Part shown: in pieces, positions 1,130 through 37,329 of the stretch | Numbering within the stretch: the stretch's first letter is position 1 | How the letters are laid out: every line of letters starts with the position of its first letter | Assembly (NCBI RefSeq): GCF_964355755.1 | Contig: NC_092672.1 | Coordinates: 12,586,001-12,650,000, forward strand | Direction: 5' to 3' | From: Antedon mediterranea | Taxonomy: Eukaryota; Animalia; Echinodermata | Length of the DNA stretch: 64,000 nt | The notes under the pieces: generated by a model | Databases searched by the model: none | The model's input: only the letters and a program-made list of their open reading frames with translations | What the model was told of the DNA's origin: nothing | Made by a program: the position numbers and the translations under genes

Positions 1130-1165
1130 CATGGATTAAAGAATAGATCTATTCTTTAATCCATG
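1130..1165. mobile_element. 36-bp perfectly palindromic mini-MITE with a 7-bp TSD
   Basis: gtttaac[catggattaaagaataga-tctattctttaatccatg]gtttaac; the paralogous site at ~34522 has a single gtttaac. Confidence 0.8.
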
Positions 1166-3297: not shown

Positions 3298-3447
3298 CTG
3301 GAAAAAAAAGAAGATAAAAATGCATCATGGCAAGAATACTCGGTCGATGATGTTAATATGTTTAGTATAGTATGTAGGCATATTAAAAAATTACAAGATT
3401 TGATATTTATTCGAGTAGGCCGACCAGATAAACGGCTCTGCTCTATA

Positions 3448-7029: not shown

Positions 7030-7484
7030 TATTTGGAAATTTTCAAAAGAAAATTCTTTCAAGCCACAGTTGAATCGGTGCTGCTGTATGGATCCTCTAC
7101 CTGGACACTAACGAAAGCTTTAGAAGCGAAACTTGATGGTATATACACTCGTATGCTAAGAGCAATTTTGGACATATCTTGGAGAGATCATCCAACCAAA
7201 CCACAGTTTATGGAAATATGCCTCCAATCTCCTCCACAATCAGACAACGGCGTCTCCGCTTTGCTGGACATTGTTGGAGATCGAAAAGAGAACTTGTTAG
7301 CCGTAGATTCTGTGGAATCCAAGACATGGTCGTCAGAAGGTTGGACGTCCCCATAAAACCTACATAGATCAACTATGCGAGGACACAGAGTGCAATCCGG
7401 ATGAACTGCCTGCTGCCATGGAAGACCAGAAAGGGTGGCGTATCCGAGTCATACAAGCCCGAGCAAGCTCGACATGATGATGAT
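7030..7484 (+). mobile_element. 5'-truncated RTE-clade LINE, frameshifted
   Basis: VESVLLYGSSTWTLT..YTRMLRAIL.ISW, IRQRRLRFAGHCWR, GRPHKTYIDQL; (TGA)n tail; tttaagt duplicated on both sides; empty site at ~12023-12029. Confidence 0.88.
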
Positions 7485-15690: not shown

Positions 15691-16235
15691 TTATAGACGT
15701 AAACCCTTTTTTAGCACCTTGGCTTCGATCATCATTCTGTTCCTTCTAAGTTTATCAATAACTACACCCATGTCATTAAATACATATCTCTTATCCAGTT
15801 CAAACAAGAGGTCCCACACATTTGCTATATGGTCAACTGCAATTTTATACCAACGGCAAATCGTATCTCTCTTATCTAAATTTAACATGCGACCAAATGC
15901 GATCAAATTTTGTCGAAGTTGGGAAAACTTAGTTATTGTGATACCAGTAACGAATCCATTAAAACACGGCATCTTCTGTTTGATGATATTCGCAGCCCCA
16001 TACCATCCACACAAACTGAAACATTCAATGATCAAATCAACATTTGTACTGCTAATACGTCCAGTAGTAACGAGTAATCTGAATAGATTGAATGGTTGTC
16101 CTTCTTTCTCTATGGCTGCTACAGCAATGTCGTTGAAATCTAAAAGTAGTAACTTCAACATGTGTACATTCCCTTCAACTTTTATCCAACTTGACAAGTC
16201 GACAAGAAGTTCCAGAAAGACTTCATCCGAAAGAT
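15691..16235 (-). CDS. Terminal exon: two tandem death-effector-domain-like (death-fold) modules
   Basis: FLELLVDLSSWI..LKLLLLDF..IEK..PFNLFRLLVTTGRISSTNVDLIIECF resembles the DED1 pattern of FADD/caspase-8. FSQLRQNLIAFGRML..NVWDLLFELDKRYVF resembles caspase-8 DED2 (ISAYRVML..NLLDIFIEMEKRVIL). Recognised by eye only. Confidence 0.65.
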
Positions 16236-19200
16236 CTTAGAAAGAAACCAATTTGTTTTTAGTAAAATTTTTATTTTTTCATACAAATTTGATCAATTAT
16301 TCCAAATATCGGAAGAAAAATAAAATAACTAACAATAATTGAAAGCACCAAAAAGCAATGGATATATACGGTTACTGACAAAATGATAATAATAATCTGG
16401 AAAACTTCAGTGATATCCCCACTACCCAAAAAAAAAAACCAAGGGAACTGAAGGATTTCAGACCAATTGCTATCACATCAAACGTTATAAGATGTTTTGA
16501 GAAAATGTTAATTAAACATTTATTTGATATGACTAAACTTTTTCACGACTCATTCCAATTTGATTATCAAGAAAACCGCAGTGTGGAAGATGCTGTGTTA
16601 GTTCACATAAACAGAATATATAGTCACTTAGACAAAAATAGGTCATATGTCAGATCATTATATGTTGACTTTTCCAGGGCATATAACACTGTAGTTCCTG
16701 AACTGCTTATTAGAAAGTTGAATAATATAAACATCAATGCAAATTAATATTTTAAAATGGCTGTATAGCTTTAAGTCCAGACCACAATTTGTAAAATTAA
16801 ACGATATTATGTCAAATGAAAGAGTTGTAAATGTGGGTATACCACAGGGGTGTGTAATTTTGCCAGTACTGTATTCTCTATTCACTGCATGTTTTAGATC
16901 CAAGTCCAAGATGTTTTCGGTAGTTAAATATGCTGACGATACCGTCTTGACTGGCTATATTACCAATGCAGATGAAAATAGTTATAGGGAAATGAGTGAG
17001 GATAACAACTTGAAATTAAATAACAACTTAAACTAAAGAAGTTGTAATTGATTATAGGAAAGAATGTGAACCTTTGATTCCAGTAGTTATAAATGGAGAA
17101 GAAATTAAAATGGTAGAAGAATACAAATATTTAGGATGTATCATTGATCATAAACTTAACTGGAAGACAAACACAGATAAATTAGTTGGTAAAGCATGTC
17201 AAAGAATTTACATATTGCGAAAAATGAAAACGCTCAATATTGATATCACTATTATGGAGTTGTTTTATATGACGATGATCCAAAGTGTATTATCTTACTG
17301 TCTGATTTGTAACTATGGTAATTTATTTAAGAAAGATAAAAAAAGGCTAAATCAAATTGTGAAAGGAGCTGGTAAACTTATAGGCGATATGACAATCTGC
17401 ATGGATGTATTATATAATGATAGATCAATGCAGGCTGCTTTGCGTATAATGGGTGATGATCAGTTTATTCGATCCCGAAGTGGTAGGCTATGTGTCCCTA
17501 AGACAAAAACAAACCGATCCCGTTACGCCTTTATAGCCAACGTCATACATTTGATATACTCACGGCAAAAACGATAGGAAACTGTGTTAACATATCATTG
17601 TGCAATTCTTCATTAAAAGCTTTTAATCTGTATATATTATACTTAACGTAGCTTTTAATGTATATTTGTGTATTTAGTTGACTTTTTATAGATTATAACG
17701 TATTGTAAGATTGTTACCTGTATCCAATGGAGCCAAGGGTAGTCTTTCAGGTAGGCGTACTGCTGTATCAATATCAACTGTACAAAAATAATAATAATGT
17801 TTTTAATGAAATATAACTTGAAAGCACAAATTCAAAAATGTTTTGCTTAATTTGAAAAAAAATAAACCGAAAACATAAATCATTAGTCAATGTTAGTTTA
17901 CTTACGCTTCGCTGTTGTTCCTGTTGGCCCAGTGGCAGCTTCACCTTCTCGTTCAACTGTATCTAATGCGTAACACAGTAATAAACATTACTTACTTTCC
18001 ACTAATTGATTTCAGAATATTGTAAGTGTACACAGTTGAAATTGTATTGATTTATTATTGTGTTGCTATCTATCGTGAATTATACAATGGAAGCATTCCA
18101 TTGCACCAGTGCACTAGAAGGTTAACTTGACATTTAGTGACTATTATCTCCACTATACAAATGTAAGAAATATAGGTCAACATAATATTTATTTATTTTG
18201 TTCAGAAAATGTTAATAACAATGTATACTTTCAACTAACCATCTAAAAGCAGATACTGTAATCGATCAGTTTTCATAGACTTTCTGCCACATGGAACAGT
18301 ATCTTCTTTCAGGCATTTTTCGAGATCGTGTAAATGAATATGTTCTGCTGTATGACAGGCGATACACAACACACGTAGGTTGTAACCAATTCCTTCATTA
18401 GTTTTCAGCACAGTCTTTAGTTGATGCATTAAATATCGTAACACCTACAAACCAATTGATAATAGAAAAGATGAGTTAAAAAACTGTTTTTGTAAAATGA
18501 TTGTAATACTGTAGTTAAAAAGAAACCTTATAATCTTTACCTCAATGCATAAGCTCGGTTGCGGTCCATATATTACCTCTGTGTTATTATCATCAACTTC
18601 AATCCGACGAGATATTTCAAGCTGATGAGAAAAGTTTTCTTCTTTGTTAGTATTATGCCTACATATAGTACACTTACACAAGGGGAGAGTGACAATTTTA
18701 CTCTTCCCTGCTACCCTACCTACTAAAATATTTGGAATGGAATATAAAAGGATCAAAACAATTGACTATCGTGTCGACACTGAATATCAAACATTTTATG
18801 TTATGAACTGACAATTCACTTAATTTCTATACCGCGGGACCATAGTAGGCCTATTATCAAACCGATATTGAAATACAGTATAATATAAGTATAAGTAACA
18901 GTAAATAAGTAAATTATACAATTAATAAATGTAGGTGGTTTGCATTGTGTATTCTCAAGCTAGCGTTTACCACTTAACCTAATTTATGCGTTTACTATTT
19001 ATTTTTAACAGTAGCTTTATACTGCTATACATTAGTGAAATGTTAGTTTCTAACGAATTCATACAATATAACTTTTTATACTGTACCTTTAATGCATGCT
19101 TATTTTCCCTTTGATGCTCAATATTTACGGCACCTAAACGAACTTCATGATCCCCAAAATCAAAGTCACTGCGATTTTGGAACACCACTTGATCACCACG

Positions 19201-22200
19201 CCTACCTTTGCTCTCCATTAAATACAGAAATGCAACAACTAATGTATTGTACACAGCATTAGGCAGAAAGTCAGTAGGTGTAAGATACATCGACAACGTG
19301 TGTTTCTCGTCTTTTTCAACTTTCAGGCTCTCTTTCGTGTTTTGCATTCGAGATGGAACAAGAAACATCCGGTTGTCTTCGCTTTGGTGCTGAGTAAAAA
19401 AAAGTAAAAATTTAGTGTTATGAAAAAGTAACATCGATTTGGAATATGCCTACTATAATAATCTCATATTTAATCAAAAGCCAAGATGCTTAACCTACTT
19501 CTAATTTCTCATAGAGCAAACCAAATGTTTTCATCACTTCAGTAAAGATTTCAAAACGCGTTGAATCTTCATGTAATTCATGTTTCCATAAATGACGTAG
19601 CAATTTTTCCTCAAGTATTCCTTCCTTGTTAAGCTTATTCCATAGCATTCTTAGTTCTTTCTGTTACCAAATAATAAAGAAAAAAATAAAACTTATACAT
19701 ACAGTACACTATAAAAGTGCAATACATTTTCATCAAAACAAGTAATTCGTTTTATATCCACATTGTTTTTTGACAATTATTTTGCTAACCTTATCTACTT
19801 ACCACTTCAATAGTTGGTTCAACTACTGTGATCACTTTTGTCACCATTTCAATCATCATGTAAAGATTTGTTATCACTGTGTTTCTTAATTTCTTGTTAG
19901 TACTTGAATACATGATAACTCCAATGTCATTCAGGTACGCTATGGCAGTGAATAGCCCATCTTTTGAAATTCCACATTCAGTGCCGATTTTAGATGTCTA
20001 ATGCAAATTAATAACAAAATAGAATGTACTGAATTTGATGATTAAATTTTGTTATTTTCCTTTAAAATAATTGTAAACAGCTTATTGTTGATTAAAACAT
20101 AATTTTATCTAACATTCTTCCTTTTGACTAGACATTTTAGAAATCGCATTGTCAAGAAGGCCTATTTCTGGTTAAATGTAACTGTTTCCTTGCATTTTTT
20201 ATATTTATTTTACATTATCTTTGTTCAGTTTTTTTAGGATGATAACTAGCTTTTTATTAACCCTACGAAATAAACAATTCAATGTTTGATTTCATTAATA
20301 ATTTTAGTTGCTCATGTTTTGCGGGAACAACTAAAACAAGAAAAATAGTACAATAGTGATGAAGACTTCCAAATACTAAAAAATGACAAGACATCTATAT
20401 TGACTATTGTAATATTAATTCACATCGCTGGCTCAACAAAGAAATTGGCAACATTACATTGTAGACAGAAATGTGACCTTCAAATTATGACGTTATACAT
20501 TATAATTGTTACCGTATAGTACACTATTTTTAACAAGATAATACATTATTTTTGTACCAGCGTTCATACTCTATATGTGTTTTATAAATCTGTGTTTACA
20601 GTTGTGACAACATAAAATAAACGGTTATACATTTAAAACCAAAATCTTACCTCAGTAAAAGGAATACACAGTGTTGTTTTTCCAATTTCTTGCAACTGTT
20701 CTTGCAAATCCACCCATTTTAATGGAACACTTCTCACCATGGCCTTCATGTAACGACCAACGTTTCTCCTTAGTTGTTTAATACCTTCATGCGATTTTAC
20801 AGTGTTATCCACCATGTACATCTCACGATCTACATGGTCGGCATATGGCATTCCTTCCATTTTTTCAAACATTTTACGAAACTTATCCTCCACTTCCTTT
20901 AATAAAAAGTGTTTTCATAATTACATGCTATAACAACAACAAGAATGTAATTATTCTTACAAACTGTTATTTCATATTCTGATTTGAATAAATCTAACCG
21001 ATAATTAAACTTAATACACGATTTAATATGAGGACCGTAGGCTACGCTATTTATATTTCATCACTGTATCGGTTTTAACTAAATCAGCCTTCGTGTATAC
21101 CACATACCGTTGCAAAATTGTAAGCTTACTTAATGTAAATGTATGTCTGTTACCTTGATCCAATTTTTTGTTTTTGACTTTTTACGAAATGTGTCCATAT
21201 GTGTAGCAACCAAACAGATAGGAGGTGACTCAATGATCTTGCCATCAATATTAATGGGACTTCCTGGACCATGTTGTGCCACAGTATGTTCATAAATGGA
21301 CCTTATCCAGAACATATTCATTTCCAAATTAGTCATTCCTAGTGTACTCTAAAATCACAAATAAAATGCAATCTTATAAAGTAAGCTAAAATATTCTCAA
21401 TAACAAAGATATGCATATTTAATAAAGTGTATTCGAGCAAATAGGTACTGAAGGCACTTACTATTGAATCTCGCGGAATAGCTGGTTCATCCAAGTTATC
21501 ACACGCATTAAACGCTACACAGTAGGATACTCTATTTGTGAGGAAAAACTAAACAAAATACAATTGATAATAATAACTTTTTTTTAATACTCCAACACAT
21601 TTATTAGGATGTGTTAATTGATACATGCACTAATACTTTATTGAAAATGTTATACCACAACACAATGTCGTACTGTAACTATGAGCAAATATCTTTATTT
21701 TTTAATAATCATTTAACATATGAAACAAAAACTATAGAACAAACGAAAAAATACATAAATCAAATAAAATTTTAAAATATAATGTAAAGGTCTGCTTAAT
21801 AAAATTGATACGTAAACAAGCAAATCAAGACCCTTTTTTTAAACATTCAGCAATAAATTTATTTTTAAATTTTTAACACATTTTTAAGTAATAGCAAATA
21901 ACAAAATAGGAACATACCCTATGCGTTATGTAGTAGTCCAGTTGACCTGCGTAGTCCCATATCGTAGTTACGTCACTTGGAATACTTTCTGAATCATCAC
22001 TTTTTACAAATTTCCTAAACATTTTCATCGCCCAAATATCTTTCTGTCTTCGCTTTTTTATTTTAGCAACAACTTTTCTTTGAATTGAGTCGGGAATTGT
22101 CAGATTTTCTTTTAGTTGACTCTCTAAATTCAAATAATGACTACAAATCAATGGGGTGTGTGTAAATTAGATATGGATATTGATAGATGGACTGGTCTGA

Positions 22201-25200
22201 TTTGTTGTGAGTAGACATAATGAATGTTAAAATGGATAAAAAAGTGTATACAATAAATAAATAAATACAACAGTCAGGATGATTAAAGAATTGAACGAGC
22301 AGCGAATATTTTTGATTGCCCAGTTTTAATACCAATGCAATATTTGCATTTTAATACATTTATTTGTTTGCAACAAGAAAAGAAATCTCACTCTTCCCTG
22401 GTTGGACTAACTTTTTGAGAATAAAATTTTCCAGAATGTTTCATAATAATGGTATAATGCCATACATATTATTTCATCAAATATAAAGAAAACCAAATAA
22501 TGAGTCCAACCCTTTCTTGCCGATTCCACTGCCAATGACGTGTAATCAGACTCTCTGGAATCAGATGTAGAAGCCTCGCCTAAAGGAAGTTCGTTGAAAG
22601 ATGTTCTTTCTTTCATCTGTGATGTATTTTCTTCGACTACAGCCTCTTCAAATATTCGCTGGGTTTGCTTGAATCTCGAGTTTTCTGTCGGCGAAAATGT
22701 AAAACAGAAATGATTATTTGTGTCGCGTTGCACTCATAACGGATATAATTGTTATATTATCATAATACTAGAGCACTGAAATATCAATTATTATAGGCCT
22801 GTATAAACTCCACAGTTTAACAAGTACTACTTTATATTAATACTAATGAAACAATAATATAAACAACACTCCTATGAAGTTATAGTGTGCGAATTTCGTG
22901 TTTCTGTCAGCATCAGCATGTATAATACACTACATTAATTTATTATTTACATTAAAATGTTTTATTTACTTTTCTTCAGAAAAGAAATTACTATTTTAGA
23001 TCTTGTCATGCAAATAATTTGTTGTTTATTAATTCGTGCGTGACTTGTTAGGCCTATTAGTAAAGTGATTATATGCGAAACGACCACATTTTTTTATACA
23101 AAATGATCGTCAAAAATATTTAAAAAAATAATCAAACCTTCCACTAAAGACACAGAGTCAGAAGATATAGAACATTCGAAATCAGATATTGAAGGTGTTG
23201 AAACTGCACCTTGTAAATGGAATTTGGTTTCAGTTGACGTTTGTTTTTCCATATTTGCTGTGATGTGTTCAGGCGTTTTCTGGGATGTTCCTGCAATTCA
23301 TTATAATATATTTTTGATACAATATATAGAATGTCTAACATTTCACTTCTATGTATGTTTCTATACTGTATGAGTGCATCTTAACTTGATTATGATCACC
23401 AATACAGTTTGTTTAGAATAATAAAAATACCCTTGTAATAGAAATTATAGTAGATATTCATCATACCTGTTTTTACTGGATCCAAAGAAGAGATTGCTGA
23501 TGATTCCAGTTGGGAATCAGATTTAGATGTTGACATATCTGAACTTCCTTCACCATCATCCATTTCTTCCTTTATTAACTGTGTTGCAAGTTTTTCTGCA
23601 AGTGCATCTTCCCGTATTTCCTTGTTGAGCTCCATAACTGTTAAAAAAAGCAAGGTGAAATAAGGTTGTACGGTACACATCATAGAGATAAATTAAAATA
23701 CTAATATTAGAGAAATGAGATATATCATCAAATCATCATAATCACCTGTAAATAAAATAAATATATCTATATATAAATTTACGTAAGGGCAAAATTCGGT
23801 AAATCGCGCGTTATTTCTAGAATGTTTACTCGATGGTATATAAAGTTGGTTCGTACTTTCGGTACTGATTTTAACCGCCTGATGTAACCCTGTTTACTAA
23901 TTAAATTGAGTTCGATAATTAGTTATTGACGATTAAAACGAATTTAGGTTCAACGATTTGCCCCAAATAGGGGTGTTTTTCGATCGTGGTATACACTGTC
24001 TAATGGATGTCCGTCTTGAAAAATACCCGCAGACGATAATACGAGGATGCTTCGCATTTTCCTATCTCCTCCTACGATAATTGTTTTTAATGGCTGAAAA
24101 CAGGTTGAACAGCTCGAGTACAGCATCATAATGTTGAAGACAGGCCGATTTTCTTTAAAAAATACTATTTTGATAGATTTAAAATACGTTTATACAAATG
24201 TATTGATTTGCGATGAATGGAACATTCTAATCTCTGTTCCACAAGCGTCTATTCCCTCAGGCGTCGTAAAGGCAACTACTGTATACTCATAACAGAAATT
24301 CGATCCATTTTTTTTTCAATCTGTGCTGCAGAGGTTGGATATAATTTTTTTTTAAACGGATAAAGAGCTAGCGTTTTCACTCGCCGTATATTATGTATAA
24401 ATCTTTATTATTGCAGTTAAACCACCCACATCATCACCCTTCCCTCACTGGCATGAGTAGCGTTGTAAAACCAGTAGAGGAAAGGCCTACGGTACATCAT
24501 ATGCCCTAAACGCAGAACAACTTTGGTGGGTAGGCGGGTGTGTAGGGTAGGAACCAACTTTAGTATGAATTGGCTCTAGGAAACAATTGAAAACCATTAG
24601 GCCTACTAATTAAGTTGAGTTAGATAATTTAATATTTATTGACGATTAAATCGAATTTATGATTTTCCCTGAATAGAGTTGGTTTTCACAAATTGTTTTA
24701 CATTATATAAACATATACACGTCGTAGTGATGTATCGTTACATGTAGGGGCTACTGTACTATTTTAATCGACTAGGACGGTGATAGTTTCAACAAAGTTT
24801 TACTGTGTTTAGTGGTATATTATTTGTAAAATATGAAAACAATAATAATAATAATAATAACTGGTACTTGATATAGCGCATTATGCTAAAAGCCTCAATG
24901 CGCTTTACAAAGACAGAACAATTTAGAAATTTACAAATTAAAAAGTGGGTTTTGAGGAGAGATTTGAAGACACTGGTGGAAGTAGCCTGACGGATTTCAA
25001 TAGGCAACGCATACCATAGAGAAACGGATGCCGAAGAAAATGAACGATTTCCATAAAACTTAGTGGAAGGATGAAATATATGGGCAAGAAGAGACTCAGA
25101 TCTAGATCTCAGAGACCGCTTAGGAACATAAGGTTGAATAAGTTCAATTAATATTTCGTTACTAAATGGATAAAGAATGATATTTAAAAAGTGTTCCTCT

Positions 25201-28200
25201 TTGCACCCATCCTTTTCCCCATCCCTCAACCCTAATGTTACATACAAAACACAAATCAAGTTTGTTTAAATTTGACTTAAACAATTGGTCTCATTTTGTG
25301 ACAAGTTTCTCTTTCGGAAGTAATTCCCATGGTGCTAATTTTAGTTGAGTACATAAATTACAGTGTCTATTTATTCGTTCCTGTAGGCTGTAAACGACAT
25401 GTATTATTGTCCTGCGGTACGTACATTTGAAATCGCCAGTTTTTTAACGCTGAAATTATTATGTATTCGAGAACCATCTGTGGGCACGACCTAGATGGTA
25501 CGCGAGCGAAGCGAGCGTACCATCTAGTGTAGGTAATTTATGTAATTACAGACCAAAATGCATTTAAGTATTTAATAAAAATATTATTTCCAATGTACCT
25601 TACCGGTACGTTTTTACCCTTATCATGAAACTAATTAATCTCTATACACAAATTGGCCAAATCAGGCAATTTTGTTGAAAGAAGAAGAAAGAGAGAGTTT
25701 CTCTCTTTTGTGGGGACAGCCCACTTTGAACGAACAGGTAATGGGTCATTTGGTATGGTTGACTTCTTCTTTTCAAACTTACCGTTGATATCTTCCTTCT
25801 TCCACTTTTCACAGTCTTTTCCAATTGCTTGAAACACTGTCGTTGTAATAACAATACCATCAGTAGATGGTTCGTTGGATTTAAATCTATAATAATGAAT
25901 AATAATGAACTCCAAAAGGTCAGATTTAAAGAAAGTAGAATGTATCCAATAGTTCATCTTAAAATATTAATATATTTAAAATAAAAACACAAATAAATAT
26001 AAATATTTTCTGATAAGAAATGTTATGCCATGACTATTATAGAGAACATGAATACACGATTTGAAATAAATTAGCACTTTATCTATTGTAATGGTAAAAA
26101 CACCATTCAACTTGTATTATAAATGCTGTATATTGATGAAGATGATGTATATTTTATTTTATAAAATAACTTTGTTCTTTTGTTACCTTTGTCCAAGCAT
26201 GGCCTTTACACAACTAGTTTTTCCAGCACCTTCTTTCCCGAGAAACATACATCTTGAATTTACAACTGCAATCTCGCCATTTTCAAGTTCATTTTGAAAT
26301 GATCTAATTGCGCTCTCACCTCTAGCTAATATTTCAACTGGAACTAAATTGCAATTAAAATAATTGCAAAATATACAAAAACAAATACAAATATTTTGAA
26401 TCAATTCAAAGCCATAGTTTTAAAAATGTCATTATGCTCTCATCTTCGTCACATTCGTACAGTTCAAAAGTTCAGTACAATGTTAAATATGTGTCATTAG
26501 TAATACACAGTTTAATATTCATGAGCAAAACTCAATCAAAGTGTATTAATAAAAACTTACTGTCAAGTAACTCCAATATCTTATTTTTCTTTTCTTTGGA
26601 GATATCACTATTATCCTTCAAAAGAGATGCTGGTGTTTTTCCTCGCTATACAAAAAATTGTATTAAAGTATTATCCACTGTTACTTTACTAATCTATATA
26701 TACATTTACGTAAGGGAAAAAATCGGTAAATCGCCTCTTACTTCTAGAATTTTTACTCGATGGTATATAAAGTTGGTTCGTACTTTCGGTACTGATTTTA
26801 ACCACCTATGTAACTCTGTTTACTAATTAAATTGAGTTAGATAATTATTTATTGACGATTAAAGCGAATTTACGATTTGCCCCGAATAGAGGTGTTTTTC
26901 ACAAATTGTTTTACATTATATAAACACTATACAAATAAACTTTATTACCGACAGTTGCTTCTCAATGTTTGTATTAATTAATAATGTAATTACAAAAAAA
27001 ATATAAACGTCGTAGTGGTGTATCATTACATGTACTGTACTTTAATCGACTATGACGGTGACAGTTTCAACAAAGTATTAAATCGCAATGTTTTAATGTA
27101 TTTAGTGGTATATTATTTCTAAAACATGAAAACAGTTAATATTTTGTTACTAAATGAATAAAGAATATATTAACAAATTGTTCCTCTTTGCACTCATCTT
27201 CTTTTCCATCCCTCAACCTTAATGTTACATACAAAACACAAATTAAGTTTGTTTAAATTTGACTCAAACAATTGGTCTCATTTTGTTTCTCTTTTGGAAG
27301 TAATTCACAGGGTGCTAATTTTAGTTGAGTACATAAATCACCGTTTTTATTTATTCGTTATTGTAAATGACATTTATTGTCCTGTGGTACGTACATTTGA
27401 AATAGCCAGTTTTTTAACGCTGAAATTACTATGTATTCGAGAAGCATCTGTGGACGACCTAGATGCGAGCGAAGCGAGTAAACTAGTAATTTACATAATC
27501 CGGATTGTAATAAACACATGCATTTAAGCTAATAGTGTGCACACGTTAATATGACACAATCTGAGTACCTTTGCACTAACAAACAACAATATTAACTGCT
27601 GTGATTGAATACACTTAGTCTTAGTCTTTAAAAATCTCTCAAAACCCACATTTTGAATTTTTAATTTTCTAAATTGTTCTGTCTATGTAAAGCTCATTAA
27701 GGCTTTCGGCATAATGCGCTGTACCAAGTACCAGTTATTATTATTAAAAATGCTATTGAAAAAAATATTATAAAAGAATAATCGATACTGTATTAAATGT
27801 ACATGTTAATTATCGCATCTATGATAATTTACCACCACTAGCAGTAACTCGTGCTCCGCATGGTCTTTGTCGGCTTTAGTATATGATTATATACTAATTC
27901 GCATGGGATGAGTAAGTATCATATAAGCGCACTCTTCCCTCATAAAACGCCATGGATTTTGTTATACACCAAGTATTCCTTCACTTTTAAGTAACTATGA
28001 GCTACAAAATAAAAGCAATACTGGATATGGGACTTTACGAAAATGGAAAAATTGTGCTGTGTGAATAAGATGATGCGCGCAATAACATAACGAAAGTATA
28101 AAACGGCGAACTATATTATTTTGGGTGTTTTTCGTGGTGTATTAATTATTATTTTGATACATTGAAATAAAAAGTGAACAAAAATCGAACGGAATAGAAA

Positions 28201-31200
28201 GTGCAGGAGATTAAAACATTTTTGAATAAATAAGTATTGGAATAAATCAACACAAAAAATAGTCGAAATTTGACGATGCGTTCGGACACAAACTATTACT
28301 TTTTGGGTGTATTTTTTTTGAGACGTCAAATTACTGCTATTGTTTGCCTTTTTTAGTGTTTATCCTTAAAATTCAGGAAAGTGACATAGCCTATCGTGTG
28401 CGGCCCATCAATAAACATCAGTGTGCCAAATGTGAGCACGTACCGTTCGGTGGCTTTGGAAGAGATACATAAAATTAAAAAAAATTTAGTAGCATTGATA
28501 TTTATTTGCTAACATAATGTCTTCAAACAATTGGCGCCCTTTCTGATATTGTTTGGCTCCATCAAGATAATGATTACTGTGTATTAGTTAACACAAGATT
28601 TGTAATATTTTAAGTTGATAGATACTCCTAATCAAAATAAGAGTATACCATGGATATAGGCGTAATGGTTTGCTTAATAAGCACAATTTAAAAATGCAAA
28701 TGCAATGTTGCTGCATTAATTGACGGTACCTTGTTTCTTGCTTTAAGTGATGCTCCGTGGGCTATGAGACTGTTCACTGTTTCTATATTACCATTACTGC
28801 CAAACCTAACGTGTACATGTAGCGGTGTGTTTCCAAACTGAAAAGCAAAAAGTTTTATGTAGGCCTATAATAATATACATTTTACACTTTAGATACTAGA
28901 ACTAAAGTTTAAACAAATTTAATATTGTATTCGTATCCTACAATTATAACAAGCAATTAACTACTACATCTAATGTATTGTATATTTTGCTTCTCGTGGG
29001 CTACTCGTCTTTCAGTAGGTAACTTTGATGATCATCCCTGCCAAATCGCCAGGACTTGTCTGGCGGGTGTAGGCGATTATACAAGTACAATTATTTAAAC
29101 TCTAGAGGCAACTGGAAATGCGTCTGGCAGGTGGACAGCCGGGAATGACAGCCGGGGTGTGAAGCATATGTTTATCGATTATAGAATGAAAGTTAGATGA
29201 TAAATCTGAATTGGGGTAAAAAATTGACTTCAGTAATGTAAACGGAGTCCCATCCTTTTATTACGTTTCATGAAATCATACACATAAGCGCCATTATTGG
29301 TTCGGCATCATAGTCCGCAAGGTCTATGGTCAAAAAATTGTTAAGTAAATGGAGTATTTTGTTATTTGTCTACGATAGACCACAGTATATTATACAACTA
29401 GTTGATTTAATTGGGACGTGGAGAGGTGTTAGTAATGAACATAATTTTAAAAGTATTGGTATTAACGTCTTGTTAAATGCGACAGCTATATGATGTTTAA
29501 AATACTTTAAACTTATATTTACTTTGATAAATAAATATGACTTTTCACAATTAAAATAAATTAAACAACTCCAAGGTTTGTTTATACGGGAGCTTATTTA
29601 GATTAACTTATATTGCTGACTAATACAAATAATAACGTAAATGATTTTTTAATTATTTTAAAAGAGTAATTTACATTGTTTGTTATATAGATACAGACGG
29701 GTTAGCACTGAACACATTTTAAAGTATTAATTTAGCGTCTTGTTCAATCTAAAACGCTACAGGTATACGATTTTTAATATCTATATATAAATTTACGTAA
29801 GGGCAAAATTCGGTAAATCGCGCCTTACTTCTAGAATTTTCACTCGATGGTATGTAAAGTTGGTTCGTACTTTCGGTACCGATTTTAACCGCCTGATGTA
29901 ACCCTGTTTACTAATTAAATTGAGTTAGATAATTAGTTATTGACGATTAAAACGAATTTAGGTTCAAAGATTTGCCCCAAATAGGGGTGTTTTCCGATCG
30001 TGGTATACACTGTCTAATGGATGTCCATCTTGAAAAATACCCGCCAAAAAAATGCGAGGAGGCTTCGCATTTTTCTATCTCCTCCTACGATAATTGTTTT
30101 TAATAGCTGAAAACCGGTTGAACAGCTAGAGTACACCATCATAATGTTGAAGACAGGCCGATTTTCTTTAAAAAATACTATTTTGATAGATTTAATATAC
30201 GATTATACAAATGTATTGATTTGCGATGAATGGAACATCCCAATCTCTCAGTCTGCCAGAGTTCGGTTTAACACAAGTACTGCAGGTAAATTTATGAGCC
30301 CTTGGTTTAACACATACGGTAGGTAAATATATGGGCCCTTTGAGAATAAACTTGCAATACTTTGACAATACTGTAAATACCTATTAACTATTTTTCATTT
30401 GAATCGAACATTTCTTACTGTGAATGTTCGTACTGTTAGATGTAATATAAAAATATATACAAATAAACTTTATTACTGAGACTGTGGATAGGCTCTACTG
30501 TTAGATATACAAATAAACTTTATACTGACAGTTCCTTCTCAACGTTTGTATTAATTAATAATTACCAAAAATATAAACGTCGTAGTGGTGTATCGTGACA
30601 TGTACTTTAATATTTCAATCGATTATGACAGTGACAGTTTTAACAAAGTATTAAATCGCAAATGTTTTAGGCCTACTGTATTTAGAGGTATATTATTTAT
30701 AGGCCTATAAAACATGAACAAAATATTTCGTTACTCAGTGGATAAAGAATATATTTAAAAATTGTTCCTCTTTGTACCTATCCGCTTTCCCATCCCTCAA
30801 CCCTAATGTTACATAGCGAGGAGGCTTCGCATTTTCCTATCTCCTCCTACGATAATTGTTTTTAATAGCTGAAAACCGGTTGAACAGCTAGAGTACACCA
30901 TCATAATGTTGAAGACAGGCCGATTTTCTTTAAAAAATACTATTTTGATAGATTGCTAGAGTACACCATCATAATGTTGAAGACAGGCCGATTTTCTTTA
31001 AAAAATACTATTTTGATAGATTTAATATACGATTATACAAATGTATTGATTTGCGATGAATGGAACATCCAGTTTGGTTTAACACAAGTACTGTAGGTAA
31101 ATTTATGAGCCCTTGGTTTAACACATACGGTAGGTAAATATATGGGCCCTTTGAGAATAAACTTGCAATAGGTTCGGAAAATGTTAAAAACCAATTTCTA

Positions 31201-34200
31201 TTATTTGAATCGGTAAACAGTTTCCATTTATTATACATTGATAATGAAACATGAAATATTCCTATTTATGTCCCTCGAGGTTCATTACAATTTATATTTA
31301 GTAGTCCCACGGACTTCATCTTAGCCACTCCCCCGAGTGCTAAGGCCAAATTTATGATACCTTACTTTCTATGTAAGTTTAGTTACAGTTAGTTCTTGAC
31401 GATAATACAACGAATTTAGGTTACACCCTTCGGCCGCGAAAACGTTTCTGTACAAATATGATACCGATTGGCTTTATTTCATTCAACAGCGACCATAATC
31501 TCGCCAATTACAGGATAGATAAACTATTTTATTATTGATGTGCTTATAAATTAAGACTCATGTAACCAGCTTGATTACATCATTTTACAGACAAACGAAA
31601 CTTTTTTAAACCTACTGTTTCAATAACTGAGTATAATACTGTATACGTTTTCATAAGTAAGTGCATATACATTTTCGTGTTTTCATTGACGAGATTGTAA
31701 TAGTAACTTCAGTAACTATTACAGTACTTATTTATTATACGACACAAGACAATTGTATCTGACAGGTACGTACATTATTCTAAAAAATAAGTCTAGATAG
31801 ATCCCTTGGGCGTCATAAATCACAGGCCAACAAATCAGTACTCATGACAGAAATTCGACCCAGTTTGGTTCACACAAATGTTTACAGGAAGTTCAACACC
31901 ACAACCGATGATTTGCCCTAAATATTTAGGTAGACTACAGTTTAATTTTTCACTGAATAGGAGCTTGAATTTCCGATTTCCATTTCGCAGAATGTCTAGG
32001 TCTATTTATTTAGTTTGGTTCTTATAATATAAATACAATCAACTTTATTACTGCGGTTCCATCACCACCACCACGTGCCGCCGCCCAATTCCCGTACATA
32101 CATTTCCATTTCTCCCTAATTTCTTTAATCCACATAAATTAATTGTCCTTTATGGAATCCAGTATTGGTTTTGTTGTCTCTATTTCTGAATACCCCAATT
32201 AGGGGGACACTTCCGTTTTTGTTTAGTGTCCCAAAAAAGTCCCCGTCCGTGGATTCTACTGTATTCGAGAACCATCTGTGAGCACCCCTAGATGGTACGC
32301 GAGCGAAGCGAGCGTGCCATCTAGTATTTTAAATTATACTTAATTTGCTTTGATAATAACTATAGGCTACACATGTTCACAATGAAAAGCACATTAAATC
32401 TATGGGATTTGCTTATAACGGGACATAATTTAAATTAACTTTGTAAAAAAGAGTTTTTTGTGTAAAAGAGTAATTTACATTGTCTGTTGCTGTGACTGAT
32501 GCTCCGTGAGCTATGATACTGTTCAATATCTCTACATTACTATCGGCAAACGAAACGTGTTTATGTAGCGGTGTCCTTCCATACTGATGGAAAGAAGAAA
32601 ATTAGATTACAGTATTAAACTTGAGACATTTTTTAAGAATATATGTATTATTATATTATAATATTTATCCATTTCTACATTCATTTTCTAATTAATTAAG
32701 AGTGAATGTGAATTATATAGAAAAACCTATTATTAAGAAAATAACAAAACTTGTTGATTTTAATTATTATTATAATACAGATGGGCTAGTAATGAACACA
32801 TTTTAAAAGTATTAATTTAGGCTCTTGTTCAATCTAAAACGCTACAGCTACACAAGTTTTAATATATTTTAAATTGTATTTTTGCTTTGATAATAACTAT
32901 ACATTTTTCAAATGAAAAACACATTAAACGAATCTAGAGTTTGTTTATAACGGGAGATAATTTAAATTAACTTGTAGTGTTAACTATATACAAATAATTA
33001 CGTTATTGATTTTTAAATCATTGTAAAAGAGTAATTTACTTTGTCTGTTGCTGTGATTGATGCTCCGTGAGCTATAAGACTGTTCACTATCTCTACATTA
33101 CCCCCGCCAGACCTAACGTGTTCATGTAGCGGTGTGTTTCCATACTGGAAAGAAGAAAGTTAGTATTATTATATTTCATATTTTTCTTTTCTACATTCAT
33201 TTTCTAATTCATTAAGAAGGAATGTAAATTATATAGAAATACCTGGTATTAAGAAAAAATGACTAACTGATTTCAATTAAGACATTCAGAGGATTTAGCA
33301 ATGAACATCATTTTGAAAGTATTGATGTTAGCGTCTTATTTAATCTCAAATTCCATCTTCCTTTTTATAGTTATAATATTCCTAGTCTTAGTTTAGTCAC
33401 AATGTGTCTATGTTTTTAATTTTAATTAAGTATTCTTCTGAAAAGAAGAAAGTTAGATTAAACTTGGCGCATTTTTTAAAGAATACAGGTATTATTATAT
33501 TACATATTTATCCTTTTCTATAATCATTTTGTAATTTATTAAGAGTGAATGTAAATTATATAGAAAAATCTAGTATTAAGAAAATAATAAAACTTGTTTA
33601 AAAAGTATTGATTTAGCGTCTTTTTCGATCTAAAACCCTACAGCTACACGATTTTCAATATATTTTAAATTGTATTTTTGCTTTGATAATAACTAAACAT
33701 TTTTCCAATGAAAAACACAATAAACGAATCTATGGTTTGCTTATAACGGGAGATAATGTAAATTCACTTGTAGTGTTAACTAATACGAATAATTACGTTA
33801 ATGATTTTTAAATCATTGTATAAGAGTAATTTACATTGTTTGTTGCTGTGATTGATGCTCCATGAGCTATAAGACTGTTCACAATCTCTACATTACCCTG
33901 GCCAGACCAAACGTGTCTATGTAGCGGTGTGTTTCCATTCTGGAAAGAAGAAAGTTAGTATTATTATATTTCATATTTATCCTTTTCTACATTAATTTTC
34001 TAATTCATTAAGAGGGAATGTAAATTATATAGAAATACCTGGTATTAAGAAAATAATGACTAACTGATTTCAATTAAGACATGCAGAGGATTTAGCAATG
34101 AACATCATTTTGAATGTATTGATGTTAGCGTCTTGTTTAATCTAAAATTCGACAGCTGTGTACATGATATTTAAATATCGTAAATTATATAGTGATCGTT

Positions 34201-37200
34201 AATAACTTTAAATAATATAATTTATTAAATTAATAAACATATTCCTACGTCTAGACATCTCGTTTAGATTCAAGTAAACTTAATGAATACTGAATTTGGA
34301 GATCTGTATGTATTTACCAAACCGCCTTCAAAACATAATTGCAAATTCCAACAATACACACTACGGTGAATTCAATAAATATTTTGTTATATTATTAATC
34401 TACTATCCATCCCACCTTCATCCTACAATTAAAAAAAATATTACGTAATTCGTTTCTCCCATTTGCTATGAGGCTTTTGAATGCAAGCTGTGGATGCTTG
34501 CCAACGTCGCACAACATGCTCGTTTAACTAACAAATAAACAAGTAGCAAAATCTGTCTCTTGGAAGAGAGATGAGGATCTCAAAATCACGATAAATGCGT
34601 TAAAATTGAATCAAACAACAATAATAACAAACTACTATTTAACAACAACAATGTATCTCGTCTCTTTCCCTCTCAACCTTGCCGTTAAATAATTATAGAG
34701 GGGGTAGTTTCAATTAACTTTGGCAGACGGCAAACATACAATGTATAGAGTGCGTTTAAATATGTTCTGAGCTTAGTAAAGAGATCAGTATTTGTAGTAG
34801 ACATAAGGACAATATATTTTAATTTAGATGGATTATTTGTGTAATAGGATCGAAAACATATACTTAGTTCTACTATCTGAATAAACTAAAAGGAATTCAT
34901 CTTCAATTGATTGTAGAGAGCAAAATTTGCATAGTCTATCATTTCTATTAGGCCTAATACGATTCAATCTTCATTTTTCTTGTTATAATATTCCTAGTCT
35001 TAGTTTAGTCACAATGTGTCTATGTTTTTAATTTTCATTAAGTATTCTTCCATAATTCCAACATAATTTACATTGAATGCGTGTGAAATATTGGAGCTTA
35101 TAAGAGTGTAACCAATTATCTCATAGAATTGTGTCGTTCAATAAGCCTCGCCTTTGTTTAAATTTTGAAATAAAAAATATTGTTGACATGTTGAGCATGC
35201 CATGTTGCCAAATCCATTTATACATAATAAGTTTTCCATCATTGACCTAAATCGCTCATTTTGTTGCGTTTTTCTATGTTGAAAATCATAACATTGTTTA
35301 AGGAATTTTTCATAATCTATTTGGCTTACTCTCAGCCACTAACGAATTCAATTAATGATACTTGGAGTTTGGATAGGAAATCCTCGACATTCTCCTTTCA
35401 GTACATCACTTGGTGCAGAATTTTCTATTCCTAAAAGACATTTTTATTTTAAAATCAAAATATAATCCAAGTGGTATGAAGAAATTGTTCATCTACTGGA
35501 AAACTACAAGTCAGTCGATGCTACAAACCACATTATATCTCAGATGCTAGTGAAGTAGTATGTGGTCAATGCACGTATTTAAGATTGATGACTCATGATA
35601 ATATTCTATTTCTCTACTATTAGCTAACGCCAAAGTTACCCCAGCTAAAAAAAACAAGGTATCAAGTGTATGTAGCTAACCGGGTACAACAAATCAACGA
35701 TGCAACTTCCATAGAAAACATCTTCTAATCCGAGTGATATAGTCAGTAGAGCCGTGCGTGCTAACAGTAAGCAATTGATTTCAGATACCGGATGGGTGAG
35801 TTGTTCTACACTTCTTCACCAGGTAGTTCTTAACAAACAAAGGCGGTTGGCCGAAATCGATGACGAATCGCGTATAAGGTTGTTGCTTCAGAACTAAAAT
35901 ATATTCGCTCATTCCACACTAATGCTGACAAAGTTGTTTCAGAATGGGTTTATAACAGACAGATAAAATGAACTATAAATCACATTAAATGTATTGAATG
36001 TTCATTCCCCTAAAGGAGCCAACACGTTGTAAGGCATATTTTTTAGATATGCCTATCAATGGTAAACTTAACAGTGATATAAGACAACAAAACACATGCA
36101 ATAATTTAATATGAAAAGATTGGTGTGGTGATATTGCAAGGAGCCATGTAAATGGCAGTATATATTATATAATTCGCTGTCAGATGATACTTCACACTTG
36201 AATGAAGTATCTAGGCATGATGAAGTGACCCACAGACTTGACCTTAGAAATAAGATAAACTAAAGTGACTGATATGAAACACAGACTCTGTAACAAAAAA
36301 ATAATATTTGTATTTGTAAAAAAAGAAAAGAAACGTTTAATTATAACTCAAAAACCATTGTCTGACAGACAATTTAAGTATTTTTTGCTTTAAATTACAT
36401 TTTTTTCAGGTAAGATAACTATTATGTGACAATAAAATGACACAATCAAACACAAATTTGAAATAAAAAATATTTTTCAGAGGGACAATATATCTTTAAA
36501 ACTGTTACGTCAATAAGCGAGCAGCGTTTTTTTTAAGAAATTTTTCTTGTAGATATGCCTATCAATGAAAAGCTTAACAGTGATCTAAGACAACAAAACA
36601 CATACAATAATTTAATATGAAAAGATTTGTGTAACTTTTGCAAGGAGCCATGTAACGGCAGTATGTGTAACTGAGTTAATGATTATGTAATTTTTGTTGA
36701 AGATAAAAACCATGTTAGCCTGCGTATATTAGATATCTCACTAGCTAGTGTAGTTAGTTGAGACGATTCTATCGTTAGATGTATTGCGATTTCTAAATGT
36801 TATGTCATACTATTATACAATAAATTATCTCCATTGTGGCATGATTACACGCACGCATTCTGTCTTTCTATTACGTTTTATCTCAACTCAAAGAAGTGGC
36901 AAGTGAGGCCGTAGTTATAGTATAGAGTAGATTGTTTGTTTGTTATTGGTTCTTAGTAAATGTTGTCATACATTATATAAACGTTTTCGTGTTTTTCACC
37001 CTTGAGTTTACCGTAAATATGGTGATGATTTATATCATATTCAAATTCAAATAAATATAATTTCTATACCTCATCTACGGAGTTCACAAGATGTGGATAT
37101 GTTTTACATATTTTTTCAATTTCTTTCAATTCTCCATATTTTACAGTTGTTAGGAATACGTTTCTGAAAAAAAAAAGAAGATAAAAAATAATCATGGCTA

Positions 37201-37329
37201 GAATACTCGGTCGATGATGTTAATATGTTTATTTGTCATGTTTCTAAACAATAATAAATACAATTTTCTTTGAACTATTTAAAATATTATACGTTTGTTG
37301 GATGTAAAATATAAAGCTTACTTCTCCAT
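15691..37329 (-). CDS. ROCO-family protein: ankyrin repeats - Roc GTPase - COR - Cys/His module - tandem DED-like domains (24 coding exons, 1236 aa; copy A)
   Basis: Manual splicing, all GT-AG with matching phases: 37329-37322, 37163-37070, 33939-33835, 33144-33040, 32583-32479, 28837-28730, 26645-26561, 26343-26187, 25886-25783, 23637-23467, 23290-23138, 22684-22511, 22123-21918, 21548-21462, 21348-21154, 20896-20651, 19997-19803, 19660-19499, 19389-19087, 18621-18541, 18444-18240, 17962-17906, 17777-17718, 16235-15691. Total 3711 nt with no internal stop. Motifs: GNTPLH (ANK), GKEGAGKTS (P-loop), STDGI (switch I), WDYAGQLDYYITHRFFLT (Roc G3), PPICLVATHMD (G4), VPLKW and YLNDIGVI (COR). The small linker exons and the start codon are less certain. 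Confidence 0.88.
16399..17577 (+). mobile_element. Degenerate non-LTR retrotransposon RT (Rex1/Babar-like), antisense in the last ROCO intron
   Basis: WKTSVISPLPK..DFRPIAITS, YVDFSRAYNTV, GIPQGCVI, KYADDT, YKYLGCIIDHKLNW; several frameshifts. Confidence 0.88.
18240..20896 (-). CDS. Exons encoding the end of Roc, the COR domain and the following Cys/His module
   Basis: VDNT..VPLKWVDLQ; AIAYLNDIGVIMY..LRNTVITN; GILEEKLLRHLW..MKTFGLL; FLVPSRM..FLPNAVYNTLVV are typical COR blocks. The last exon has CIACHTAEHIHLHDLEKC...C. Confidence 0.82.
21154..26343 (-). CDS. Exons encoding the Roc GTPase domain of ROCO copy A
   Basis: IPVEILARG...MFLGKEGAGKTS (26343-26187); FKSNEPSTDGI (25886-25783); IWDYAGQLDYYITHR (22123-21918); FFLTNRVSYCVAFN (21548-21462); FWIRSIY...PPICLVATHMD (21348-21154). 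Confidence 0.9.
23766..25527 (+). mobile_element. Non-autonomous Helitron with both termini, containing a nested LINE fragment
   Basis: a|TCtatatataaatttacgtaagggc ... 13-bp stem ctagatggtacgc/gcgtaccatCTAG|t; no TSD. Confidence 0.85.
24841..25150 (-). mobile_element. 3' end of an L2/CR1-group LINE nested in the Helitron
   Basis: PYVPKRSLRS..YGNRSFS..LW.ALP.EIR..FKSLLKTH followed by a (TTA)n tail. Absent from the sister Helitron at ~27130. Confidence 0.8.
26693..27486 (+). mobile_element. Non-autonomous Helitron, internally deleted copy
   Basis: a|TCtatatatacatttacgtaaggg ... gcgagcgaagcgagtaaaCTAG|t; internal homology to 23766-25527. Confidence 0.82.
27622..27745 (+). mobile_element. Short 3' end of the same L2-like family
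   Basis: Reverse-complement match to 24841-24970, ending taccagttattattatt. Confidence 0.7.
28730..28837 (-). CDS. Ankyrin-repeat exon 4 (FGNTPLHVHVRFGSNGNIETVNSLIAHGASLKARNK)
   Basis: 108 bp phase 0-0 exon. The next exon, 26645-26561, begins RGKTPASLL (C-cap). Confidence 0.9.
29780..32324 (+). mobile_element. Non-autonomous Helitron (2.5 kb, with internal duplications) in an ankyrin-cassette intron
   Basis: TC...hairpin-CTAG termini. The flanks rejoin to ttaata|tattttaaatt, matching the uninterrupted sister introns at ~32860 and ~33655. Confidence 0.88.
32479..32583 (-). CDS. Ankyrin-repeat exon 3 (YGRTPLHKHVSFADSNVEILNSIIAHGASVTATDN)
   Basis: 105 bp phase 0-0 exon, cag/gtaaat. Confidence 0.9.
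33040..33144 (-). CDS. Ankyrin-repeat exon 2 (YGNTPLHEHVRSGGGNVEIVNSLIAHGASITATDK)
   Basis: 105 bp phase 0-0 exon, cag/gtaaat. Confidence 0.9.
33835..33939 (-). CDS. Ankyrin-repeat exon 1 (NGNTPLHRHVWSGQGNVEIVNSLIAHGASITATNN)
   Basis: 105 bp phase 0-0 exon with the GxTPLH...GNVEIV..LI.HGA ankyrin consensus. Confidence 0.9.
34445..34527 (-). pseudogene. Degenerate ankyrin pseudo-exon
   Basis: 83 bp between tag and gtaat. Reads LNEHVVR in one frame and KSLIANG in another (compare LHEHVR...NSLIAHG). The copy-B counterpart (about 637-1171) is split by two insertions. Confidence 0.5.
37070..37163 (-). CDS. ROCO copy A coding exon 2, ankyrin N-cap (KNVFLTTVKYGELKEIEKICKTYPHLVNSVDE)
   Basis: Poly-T + CAG acceptor and GAG|gtatag donor. 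In phase with the upstream ATG GAG AA|gtaag (37329-37322). A paralogous exon is at 3204-3297. Confidence 0.8.

Follow-up and report, generated by a model that had tools for sequence, protein, structure and literature searches.

One-exon ankyrin repeats of a crinoid ROCO gene: probable diversification of an intracellular sensor

The window analysed here, the whole stretch of 64,000 nucleotides from the crinoid (feather star) Antedon mediterranea, carries a member of the ROCO family with the domain order ANK-ROC-COR-(DED)2, 24 exons and 1212 amino acids, and the four ankyrin exons noted in a first-pass annotation, hereafter called cassettes, are the repeat block at its front end. We think it probable that the gene belongs to an expanded, Antedon-specific family with a probable tandem death-effector end, and that it serves inside the cell as a sensor of non-self, with a binding surface that diversifies in the germ line. 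The predicted binding-face codons change at about four times the rate of silent sites and repeat number differs between copies; the gene is therefore likely to be a rapidly diversifying immune-type sensor, with a putative immune role. The best reading of the data is germline birth-and-death of cassettes, combined with positive selection, in an intracellular sensor.

Gene organisation

The features identified in the window are the following:
37322..37329, minus strand: coding end of the putative start exon, with ATG at 37329 and a canonical donor; reads M-E-K and joins the N-cap exon in frame
37070..37163, minus strand: N-terminal capping repeat (N-cap) exon, phase 2-0, placed by its splice sites
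33835..33939, minus strand: cassette A1, internal type, 105 nt, phase 0-0
33040..33144, minus strand: cassette A2, internal type, 105 nt, a recent copy of the A1 unit, introns included
32479..32583, minus strand: cassette A3, penultimate type, 105 nt, closest to repeat 5 of P0127
29422..29684, minus strand: relic of a fifth cassette, with the last 10 nt of the exon (29684-29675), the donor and the downstream intron, the remainder being deleted
28730..28837, minus strand: cassette A4, terminal type, 108 nt, most similar to the final repeats of P0127, P0004 and P0123
26561..26645, minus strand: C-terminal capping repeat (C-cap) exon, phase 0-1
20651..26343, minus strand: ROC GTPase, nine exons, with an acidic insertion; assigned from the Pfam Roc match, the exon chain and motifs
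18240..19997, minus strand: COR exons, assigned from Pfam COR-A; COR-A starts within exon 20896-20651
15691..16235, minus strand: last exon, with probable tandem death-effector domains (from Atlas clusters) and the stop codon
237..3364, minus strand: 5' part of a neighbouring paralogue, with N-cap exon 3293-3204 and the next intron, the repeats lying beyond the window edge

The reading frame is intact across all 24 exons. Near the N-cap, 37322..37329 is the sole short ATG-plus-donor of correct phase, and the joined frame is open. An ATG at 37378 was rejected as the start, its donor being non-GT, and the idea of a broken start exon was dropped because a canonical end of this exon lies at 37329-37322. 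The start exon runs directly into the N-cap, which shares 68% identity with that of the paralogue P0127, and no kinase domain was found in the Pfam scan.

The core domains were assessed on P0002, an automatic gene model that shares exons with the window gene and from which two of the cassettes are missing. Bit scores lay above the Pfam cut-offs for both Roc (40.7 against 27) and COR-A (60 against 35.3), and no Pfam match to NACHT or NB-ARC was obtained in P0002 or nine relatives. The segments GKEGAGKT, WDYAGQ and ATHMD, which we take to be G1, G3 and G4, are all present in the window gene, and its GTP-binding motifs appear intact at the sequence level. The ROCO identity of the cassette-bearing gene had been missed in the first-pass annotation.

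In the Atlas, the last exon scored 0.93 to a cluster in which 51% of the members have DED and 0.90 to another in which 96% do. Pfam DED stayed under its cut-off both in the window gene (E 0.068) and in 5 relatives (E 2e-7 to 2.5e-5), and the structure search returned no match among solved structures for this region. The C-terminal end is described here as probable tandem death-effector domains.

The four cassettes and their intron units

Each cassette is bounded by AG and GT and passes the Pfam Ank cut-off, and one repeat corresponds to one phase-0 exon in 4 of 4 cases, with lengths that are not all equal (105, 105, 105 and 108 nt). The lengths, 0-0 phase and variable peptides (RHVWSGQG, EHVRSGGG, KHVSFADS and VHVRFGSNG) were exactly as first described, as was the difference of 10 nt between A1 and A2, 8 within six replaced codons and 2 silent. 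Of the homology proposed for the intron units, that between units 1 and 2 is strong (28 mismatches over 447 aligned nt); unit 3 shows it in part, and unit 4 only at the borders of the exon. Similarly, the scaffold, described as nearly invariant, is identical between A1 and A2 at 25 of 25 non-concave positions, whereas A3 and A4 show 68-84% identity to the others there. A1 and A2 arose when an entire exon-intron unit was recently duplicated, and another unit was lost, leaving the relic, which matches the end of A2 plus its intron at 77% (E 8e-49).

The first-pass annotation had also likened the variable residues to the contact positions of DARPins. When compared with the list of randomised DARPin positions, the likeness holds for positions 1, 11 and 12, which vary strongly, but not for positions 3 and 31, which vary little; position 8 and a loop insertion of 1-3 residues are also highly variable.

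Selection on the concave face

The concave set was defined as positions 1, 2, 3, 8, 11, 12, 32 and 33, following PMC8415598. Over the four cassettes, dN/dS at concave codons was 3.3-4.9, against 0.45-1.1 elsewhere, and exceeded 1 as first predicted (p 0.0008-0.012 over three trees and four codon-frequency models); these values derive from four exons, and recombination can inflate dN/dS. Between A1 and A2, 6 changes over 19.4 replacement sites (0.31) were counted at concave codons, an excess over the introns (28/447 sites, 0.063; Fisher p 0.0013). When the set was restricted to the DARPin positions, this excess was not significant (p 0.06, or 0.14 with only the downstream intron as reference), and the four-exon codon test was significant (p 0.006-0.023).

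Over 12 repeats of the window-gene subtype, entropy was 1.55 bits at concave positions and 0.44 at other surface positions (permutation p 0.002), and the contact signature was distinct in 12 of 12. No concave excess was found in 2 of 4 subfamily sets (P0007+P0265, p 0.63; P0264+P0148, p 0.68), for which the register was rough. Contigs from other samples exhibit the same pattern. In run X3, non-degenerate sites had a diversity of 0.34 in codons 8 and 11-14 and of 0.01 in the scaffold, with 0.05 at fourfold sites; the corresponding values in run X6 were 0.41, 0.02 and 0.03. The variation falls on the first and second positions of codons 8, 11, 12 and 14. Between them, codon 9 is invariant, as are most of codon 10 and the third base of codon 8.

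Both a mutation hot spot and RNA editing were rejected because the variation is codon-position specific and because a variant-rich repeat of the RNA-like run has the same letters as an X6 contig that extends through the intron flanks. An assembly artefact was rejected because independent runs carry related cassettes.

Ordinary tandem duplication under relaxed constraint, in which symmetric exons duplicate passively, gene conversion maintains the scaffold and exposed residues drift, would account for several observations. One repeat per exon is a common layout in ankyrin genes. Whole-exon pN/pS between A1 and A2 is near 1 (0.10 vs 0.08), several gene models of the family are fragments, and the repeats of the P0264 subfamily are homogenised and hardly vary. 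In ankyrin repeats at large, moreover, diversity is highest at the concave positions (PMC8415598). However, relaxed constraint predicts a dN/dS near 1 rather than 3-5, neither drift nor a hot spot predicts a pattern in which codons 8, 11, 12 and 14 vary and codon 9 does not, and the frame is intact over 24 exons; we regard this explanation as quite improbable. Diversifying selection on the predicted ligand-facing sites of the cassettes is the reading that we retain from the codon data, and the germline diversification of the contact surface that had been proposed is upheld, the distinct signatures, the relic and the varying repeat number of paralogues adding to the selection results.

The Antedon paralogue family

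The window gene falls in an Antedon-only clade of 13 paralogues, in a tree from which P0025 was left out as too short a match. Repeat number is not fixed among them: members have 2-8 near-identical repeats each, as counted on automatic gene models, with 8 in P0009 and 6 in P0127 against 4 in the window gene. Cassette clusters occur on at least five contigs of the A. mediterranea assembly. Adjacent repeats are identical at 30-33 of 33 positions in 6 of 7 Antedon proteins, and the mean pairwise identity of the 12 subtype repeats is 74% (58-91%). Homogenised repeats of this kind are absent in the Anneissia relatives, where the repeats have diverged; this contrast provides a date for the change, and with two crinoids sequenced the origin of repeat homogenisation can be tested. 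In a comparison with one full paralogue (P0127), the partners of A3 and A4 are repeats 5 and 6, respectively (87% each), and internal repeats alone differ in number. The paralogues are mosaics, 92-95% identical over the C-cap and ROC and 28% over the DED region, and the neighbouring one shares 88-96% DNA identity with 34045-37231. Among the best 120 of 348 matches in a search for short ankyrin-only models, no crinoid protein was present. Of the papers listed in literature searches of a mainly open-access library, none treats crinoid ANK-ROCO genes, and among the best 20 of 55 in one search none names Antedon.

Under germline birth-and-death, unequal crossing-over or gene conversion between homologous exon-intron units would add, remove and homogenise internal repeats, the N-cap, penultimate, terminal and C-cap repeats presumably staying fixed during this turnover, and selection would alter positions 1, 8, 11, 12 and the inserted loop. 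Judging from family knowledge, ligand binding at the ankyrin repeats may switch the ROC-COR GTPase, and the death-effector pair may then recruit FADD/caspase-8-like partners. Further variants may come from exon skipping, which this reading does not require.

Genuine diversification could also serve self or gamete recognition, or the chase of a host-internal selfish element, rather than the sensing of microbial ligands. The data name no ligand, and fungal receptors under an equal repeat regime act in allorecognition (PMC13449251, PMC4986451). Against this, no signal peptide or membrane segment was noticed in the window ROCO protein. A family spread over many loci, with birth and death of members and swapped effectors, would also be expected more of pathogen sensing than of a compatibility system with one locus; a role in self or gamete recognition, or against a selfish element, seems to us very improbable.

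Exon shuffling and splicing

An Ectocarpus-style exchange of exons had been proposed. The analogy is closer than claimed in one respect, since the window gene itself is a ROCO, but the shuffling did not find support: the penultimate and terminal repeats stand in a conserved order in the paralogues, and no inverted or non-coding-strand cassette copy exists in the 64 kb, where nhmmer on both strands found the four exons only (next match E = 3). An RNA-like run contains in-frame repeat-to-repeat splicing in 5 contigs; these are constitutive-type joins, equally compatible with skipping, so that the proposed alternative splicing of the window gene has so far gained no backing. Expression was seen only for relatives of a cassette exon, in a run labelled as another organism.

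A rival reading is a system like that of Ectocarpus or Dscam, in which germline change is joined by cassette mixing through alternative splicing (or somatic recombination) to give many binding surfaces per gene per animal. The cassettes are all phase 0-0 and three of the four have an identical non-consensus donor, GTAAAT; annotated isoforms X1/X2 of another family member (P0265, P0177) are exactly one 36-aa repeat apart; and exon skipping is reported for brown-algal ROCO LRR genes (PMC11378527). With four cassettes only, and with the strand, repeat-order and splicing results above, we hold such a system to be unlikely. A minor though appreciable chance is left to a bolder version of the preferred reading, in which Antedon, since the Anneissia split, has evolved a natural DARPin library of cytosolic ROCO death receptors, with cassettes exchanged between loci, their number varying between individuals, combinatorial splicing and swappable death-effector ends. 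If true, deuterostomes would have a counterpart to the diversification of brown-algal ROCO and fungal NLR genes, and a variable immune repertoire inside the cell would have been reached by a route other than NLRs.

Comparison with known systems

Animal ROCO GTPases are known mainly via LRRK2 and DAPK1, the latter with ankyrin, N-terminal kinase and death-fold domains, and ROCO proteins as variable immune sensors have been argued for in brown algae and bacteria. Unlike DAPK1, the Antedon gene has no kinase and has a tandem DED-like end. The Branchiostoma models P0054 and P0077 are ANK-Roc-COR-Death, and ROCO-TIR/Death proteins occur in Aplysia and anemone (PMC9334734, PMC5094078). As in animal ROCOs with a death fold, ANK, ROC, COR and a death-fold end stand in a single chain, and links to cell death and innate immunity have been proposed; homogenised, positively selected one-exon repeats are undescribed in the available text of these two papers. 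A young, expanded ANK-ROC-COR-DED family with such repeats in an echinoderm would indicate that animals arrived at the same sensor-switch-death design via a GTPase switch and ankyrin repeats.

Brown-algal LRR-ROC-COR genes (Zambounis 2012, PMC3341825; Teng 2024, PMC11378527) share with the Antedon gene a ROCO core, a single repeat per phase-0 exon, recent paralogues of unequal repeat number, inactivated exon remnants in introns, repeats under diversifying selection and a proposed immune role; somatic recombination in Ectocarpus ROCO genes is a hypothesis there (PMC3341825). In contrast, the Antedon repeats are ankyrin rather than LRR, number 2-8 against 13-17 in the cited algal pair, and have capping, penultimate and terminal repeats that stay in place, the C-terminal end is a probable DED pair, the host is an animal and no non-coding-strand exon lies in the window (one gene examined).

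Fungal NLRs whose ANK repeats are highly conserved (Dyrka 2014, PMC4986451, and an Ament-Velasquez-type study, PMC13449251) resemble the family, which has apparently near-identical repeats, in their non-canonical repeat lengths of 34-36 residues, a concave face and hairpin under positive selection, varying repeat number and effector swapping between paralogues, and repeat polymorphism between individuals has been shown in Podospora. They differ in that the Antedon switch is ROC-COR rather than NACHT or NB-ARC, its sensor is N-terminal and its effector C-terminal, introns separate its repeats, and its mean repeat identity of 74% lies below the 85% line of Dyrka 2014.

Finally, the six-repeat domain of P0127 was predicted from its alignment as a regular ankyrin solenoid (pLDDT 91.5), with TM 0.76-0.83 to natural ankyrins, and with DARPins as the top fold matches. 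DARPins and the Antedon domain both have an N-cap, interchangeable internal repeats, a constant scaffold and a C-cap, and hold their variable residues in the hairpin and first helix; the Antedon repeats are natural, germ-line encoded and 35 residues long with an inserted loop and, relative to the DARPin positions, hypervariable at 8 and in the loop and nearly fixed at 3 and 31. The family also shows where natural diversification falls on an ankyrin scaffold that stays constant, namely at 8 and the inserted loop besides 1, 11 and 12.

Gene architecture

The ankyrin exons studied here belong to a single gene on the minus strand:
37070..37163, minus strand: N-cap exon (capping repeat)
33835..33939, minus strand: ankyrin exon A1
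33040..33144, minus strand: ankyrin exon A2
32479..32583, minus strand: ankyrin exon A3
29684-29422, minus strand: relic cassette between A3 and A4, consisting of the final 10 exon nt, the donor and the downstream intron
28730..28837, minus strand: ankyrin exon A4
26561..26645, minus strand: C-cap exon (capping repeat)

Downstream of the cassettes, the open frames include P-loop and WDYAGQ motifs, and the last exon, which is helical, matches an Antedon mediterranea protein at 92%. A cluster mate of that protein, XP_071944627.1 (P0002), agrees with the window exon by exon and is yielded exactly by a GT-AG exon chain. This public model begins at A3, lacking the start exon, the N-cap, A1 and A2; its two-residue start can be placed on an intronic ATG-plus-GT word, either at 32684 or at 33200 (region 32479-37329). 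Joining the start exon (37329), the N-cap and A1-A2 to P0002 gave 24 exons and 1212 residues with no internal stop.

ANK, Roc and COR-A were detected above the Pfam cut-off. The last 180 residues look like a tandem pair of death-effector domains (DED; Atlas scores of 0.93 and 0.90, Pfam DED below cut-off) and gave no match among solved structures. The predicted architecture is thus ANK-ROC-COR-(DED)2, the DED pair being probable, and the gene therefore encodes a ROCO protein.

A look-alike ATG at 37371-37378 (minus strand), 49 nt upstream of the proposed start, reads M-D-E and then a stop, the same first three residues as in the Antedon paralogue P0127, which suggests that a short stretch around the start codon was duplicated. 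Three broken frames, 16379-17574 (+), 7000-7364 (+) and 24792-25265 (-), two of which lie within the gene's introns, read like fragments of non-LTR retrotransposon reverse transcriptase.

Cassette units

As first annotated, the four cassettes are phase 0-0 exons of 105, 105, 105 and 108 nt. They have AG/GT borders, and each passes the Pfam Ank cut-off. The count of 10 nt differing between A1 and A2, 8 within six replaced codons and 2 silent, was also reproduced. Since the introns flanking A1 and A2 align with 28 mismatches per 447 nt, the duplication was recent and took in the exon together with its introns. The homology of the intron units, initially extended to all four cassettes, holds for A1-A2, is only partial for A3 and is marginal for A4. 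A profile search on both strands of the window found no fifth intact cassette. From its sequence, the relic is what is left of a deleted repeat.

Selection on contact positions

Table 1 of PMC8415598 places positions 1, 2, 3, 8, 11, 12, 32 and 33 of the ankyrin repeat on the concave, partner-binding face. Each cassette exon starts at position 1 of that consensus and carries a short insertion after position 12. This concave set was fixed before a two-class codon model was applied to A1-A4. The resulting dN/dS was 3.3-4.9 for concave codons and 0.45-1.1 for the remaining ones, the former differing from 1 with p 0.0008-0.012 across three trees and four frequency models, with or without the inserted codons. 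Between A1 and A2, concave replacements reached 0.31 per site against 0.063 in the introns (p 0.0013; p 0.008 when the downstream intron, which is more diverged, serves as the reference), and the 55 sites belonging to neither the concave face nor the loop had no replacement. All 25 non-concave positions are the same in A1, A2 and repeat 1 of P0127, and the contact signature differs among all 12 repeats of the subtype. In these, entropy was 1.55 bits at concave positions versus 0.44 at other surface positions (p 0.002). The same test gave p 0.019 in the related protein P0009 and p 0.63 and 0.68 in two other subfamily sets, so the diversifying regime is not uniform across subfamilies.

We also aligned contigs of two independent sequencing runs to A2 (100 from X3, 39 from X6), alleles and paralogues being pooled, exon ends clipped and the most divergent copies removed by an 80% identity floor. 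Of 41 variants, 40 were listed; codons 8 and 11-14 hold 24 of these, 20 of which replace a residue, codons 13-14 having been included post hoc and the 3% listing threshold favouring a low-depth variable stretch. Non-degenerate diversity in these codons was 0.34 (X3) and 0.41 (X6), against 0.05 and 0.03 at scaffold fourfold sites; codons 11 and 12 alone gave 0.48 and 0.53, respectively. Small insertions and deletions are also concentrated in the loop. With the concave dN/dS and these contigs, germline diversification of contact residues is better supported than the first-pass annotation, which had proposed it, could know.

The six-repeat domain of P0127, standing for the joined domain of the window, was predicted as a regular ankyrin solenoid (pLDDT 91.5, from an alignment of 106 unrelated ankyrins), surface positions being assigned by consensus numbering rather than computed accessibility. 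The predicted fold matches DARPins and natural ankyrins, with TM of 0.76-0.83 to ankyrin-B, -G, -R and EHMT1.

Paralogue family and repeat number

Among the matches listed (best 120 of 416), the top 29 for P0002 comprise 14 proteins from Antedon and 15 from Anneissia. A 33-row tree covering G3 to COR-A, from which one further row was left out, groups 13 of its 16 Antedon proteins in a single clade that has 100/100 support and contains no Anneissia protein. Neighbouring repeats are identical at 30-33 of 33 residues in six of the seven Antedon proteins examined (17/33 in the seventh). The figure drops to 6-10 of 33 for nine Anneissia proteins and for Antedon P0130, which lies outside the clade. 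Repeat homogenisation is thus specific to the Antedon expansion.

The models, which are automatic and drop exons, contain 2, 3, 4, 5, 6, 8 and 8 repeats; database repeat counts for the family are probably underestimates. P0127, the closest complete N-terminus and encoded on the same contig, shares these caps and carries six repeats, of which the first four are internal, the fifth resembles A3 and the sixth A4 (87% each). From this comparison we deduced a layout in which the N-cap is followed by a variable count of internal cassettes, then by a penultimate and a terminal repeat, both fixed, and the C-cap. Compared with P0002, the paralogues P0004 and P0123 reach 92-95% identity in C-cap and ROC, 70% in COR-A and 28% in the DED region, where P0001 reaches 91%; judged by these alignments, paralogues are mosaics along their length.

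One further paralogue was located by homology to the gene:
237-3364, minus strand: 5' part of a paralogue

Its N-cap exon is apparently intact, its start exon was recovered in its first 56 nt only (9337-9392, minus strand), and its intron homology ends at 237, at an apparent insertion. This neighbour may be disrupted.

P0264 contains a run of seven nearly identical repeats, contact positions included, with a pattern recurring every three, which reads as recent amplification without diversification in that subfamily. Anneissia P0126 carries HEPN_DZIP3 at the C-terminus of the same core, P0011 has a precomputed PF00791 match and P0006 has two ROC-COR units.

Expression and splicing

Five contigs of run X16, whose type is unrecorded, whose organism label is different and which also aligns to intronic stretches elsewhere, match A2 and are all confined to 33040-33144. 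Three continue in frame into the last part of an upstream cassette, and one joins one cassette's end to another's start with a 105-nt period. We infer that they are spliced RNA of related cassettes; the joins reflect cassettes spliced in tandem and are not evidence of skipping. Skipping is suggested only by two annotated isoforms of a different family member, P0265 and P0177, which are exactly one repeat apart.

Comparison with known systems and proposed mechanism

The first-pass annotation had drawn an analogy with algal ROCO genes; the link is closer, the gene being itself a ROCO (Pfam Roc, COR-A). It would work like the brown-algal ROCO receptors (PMC3341825, PMC11378527) and the fungal NLRs with conserved ANK repeats (PMC4986451, PMC13449251), the latter showing concave-face positive selection and polymorphic repeat number. 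It differs from the former by having no LRR, no inverted exons in the window and a conserved terminal repeat order, and from the latter by having no NACHT or NB-ARC. It is thus a ROCO belonging to neither system. No paper on crinoid ANK-ROCO genes was found in the literature searched, most subscription papers being outside reach.

The family combines modular exons, recent gain and loss, a homogenised scaffold, selected contact residues and swapped C-termini. Repeat number and homogeneity would result from unequal crossing-over and gene conversion, both acting between the homologous units; the protein would sense a fast-changing cytosolic ligand and signal via ROC-COR to a death-fold effector. 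Such a sensor-to-effector route would fit PMC8195603, which describes as conflict systems the LRR-GTPase-COR proteins of bacteria, whose C-terminal effectors vary.

Near the ROCO cluster, two long single-exon frames on the plus strand, 44422-45807 and 49009-50451 (462 and 481 codons), each have a predicted signal peptide followed by about three Ig-like domains and a membrane segment that ends in a short tail, the Pfam Ig match being strong for the second and weak for the first. As intronless tandem Ig receptors, they could be another variable receptor family.
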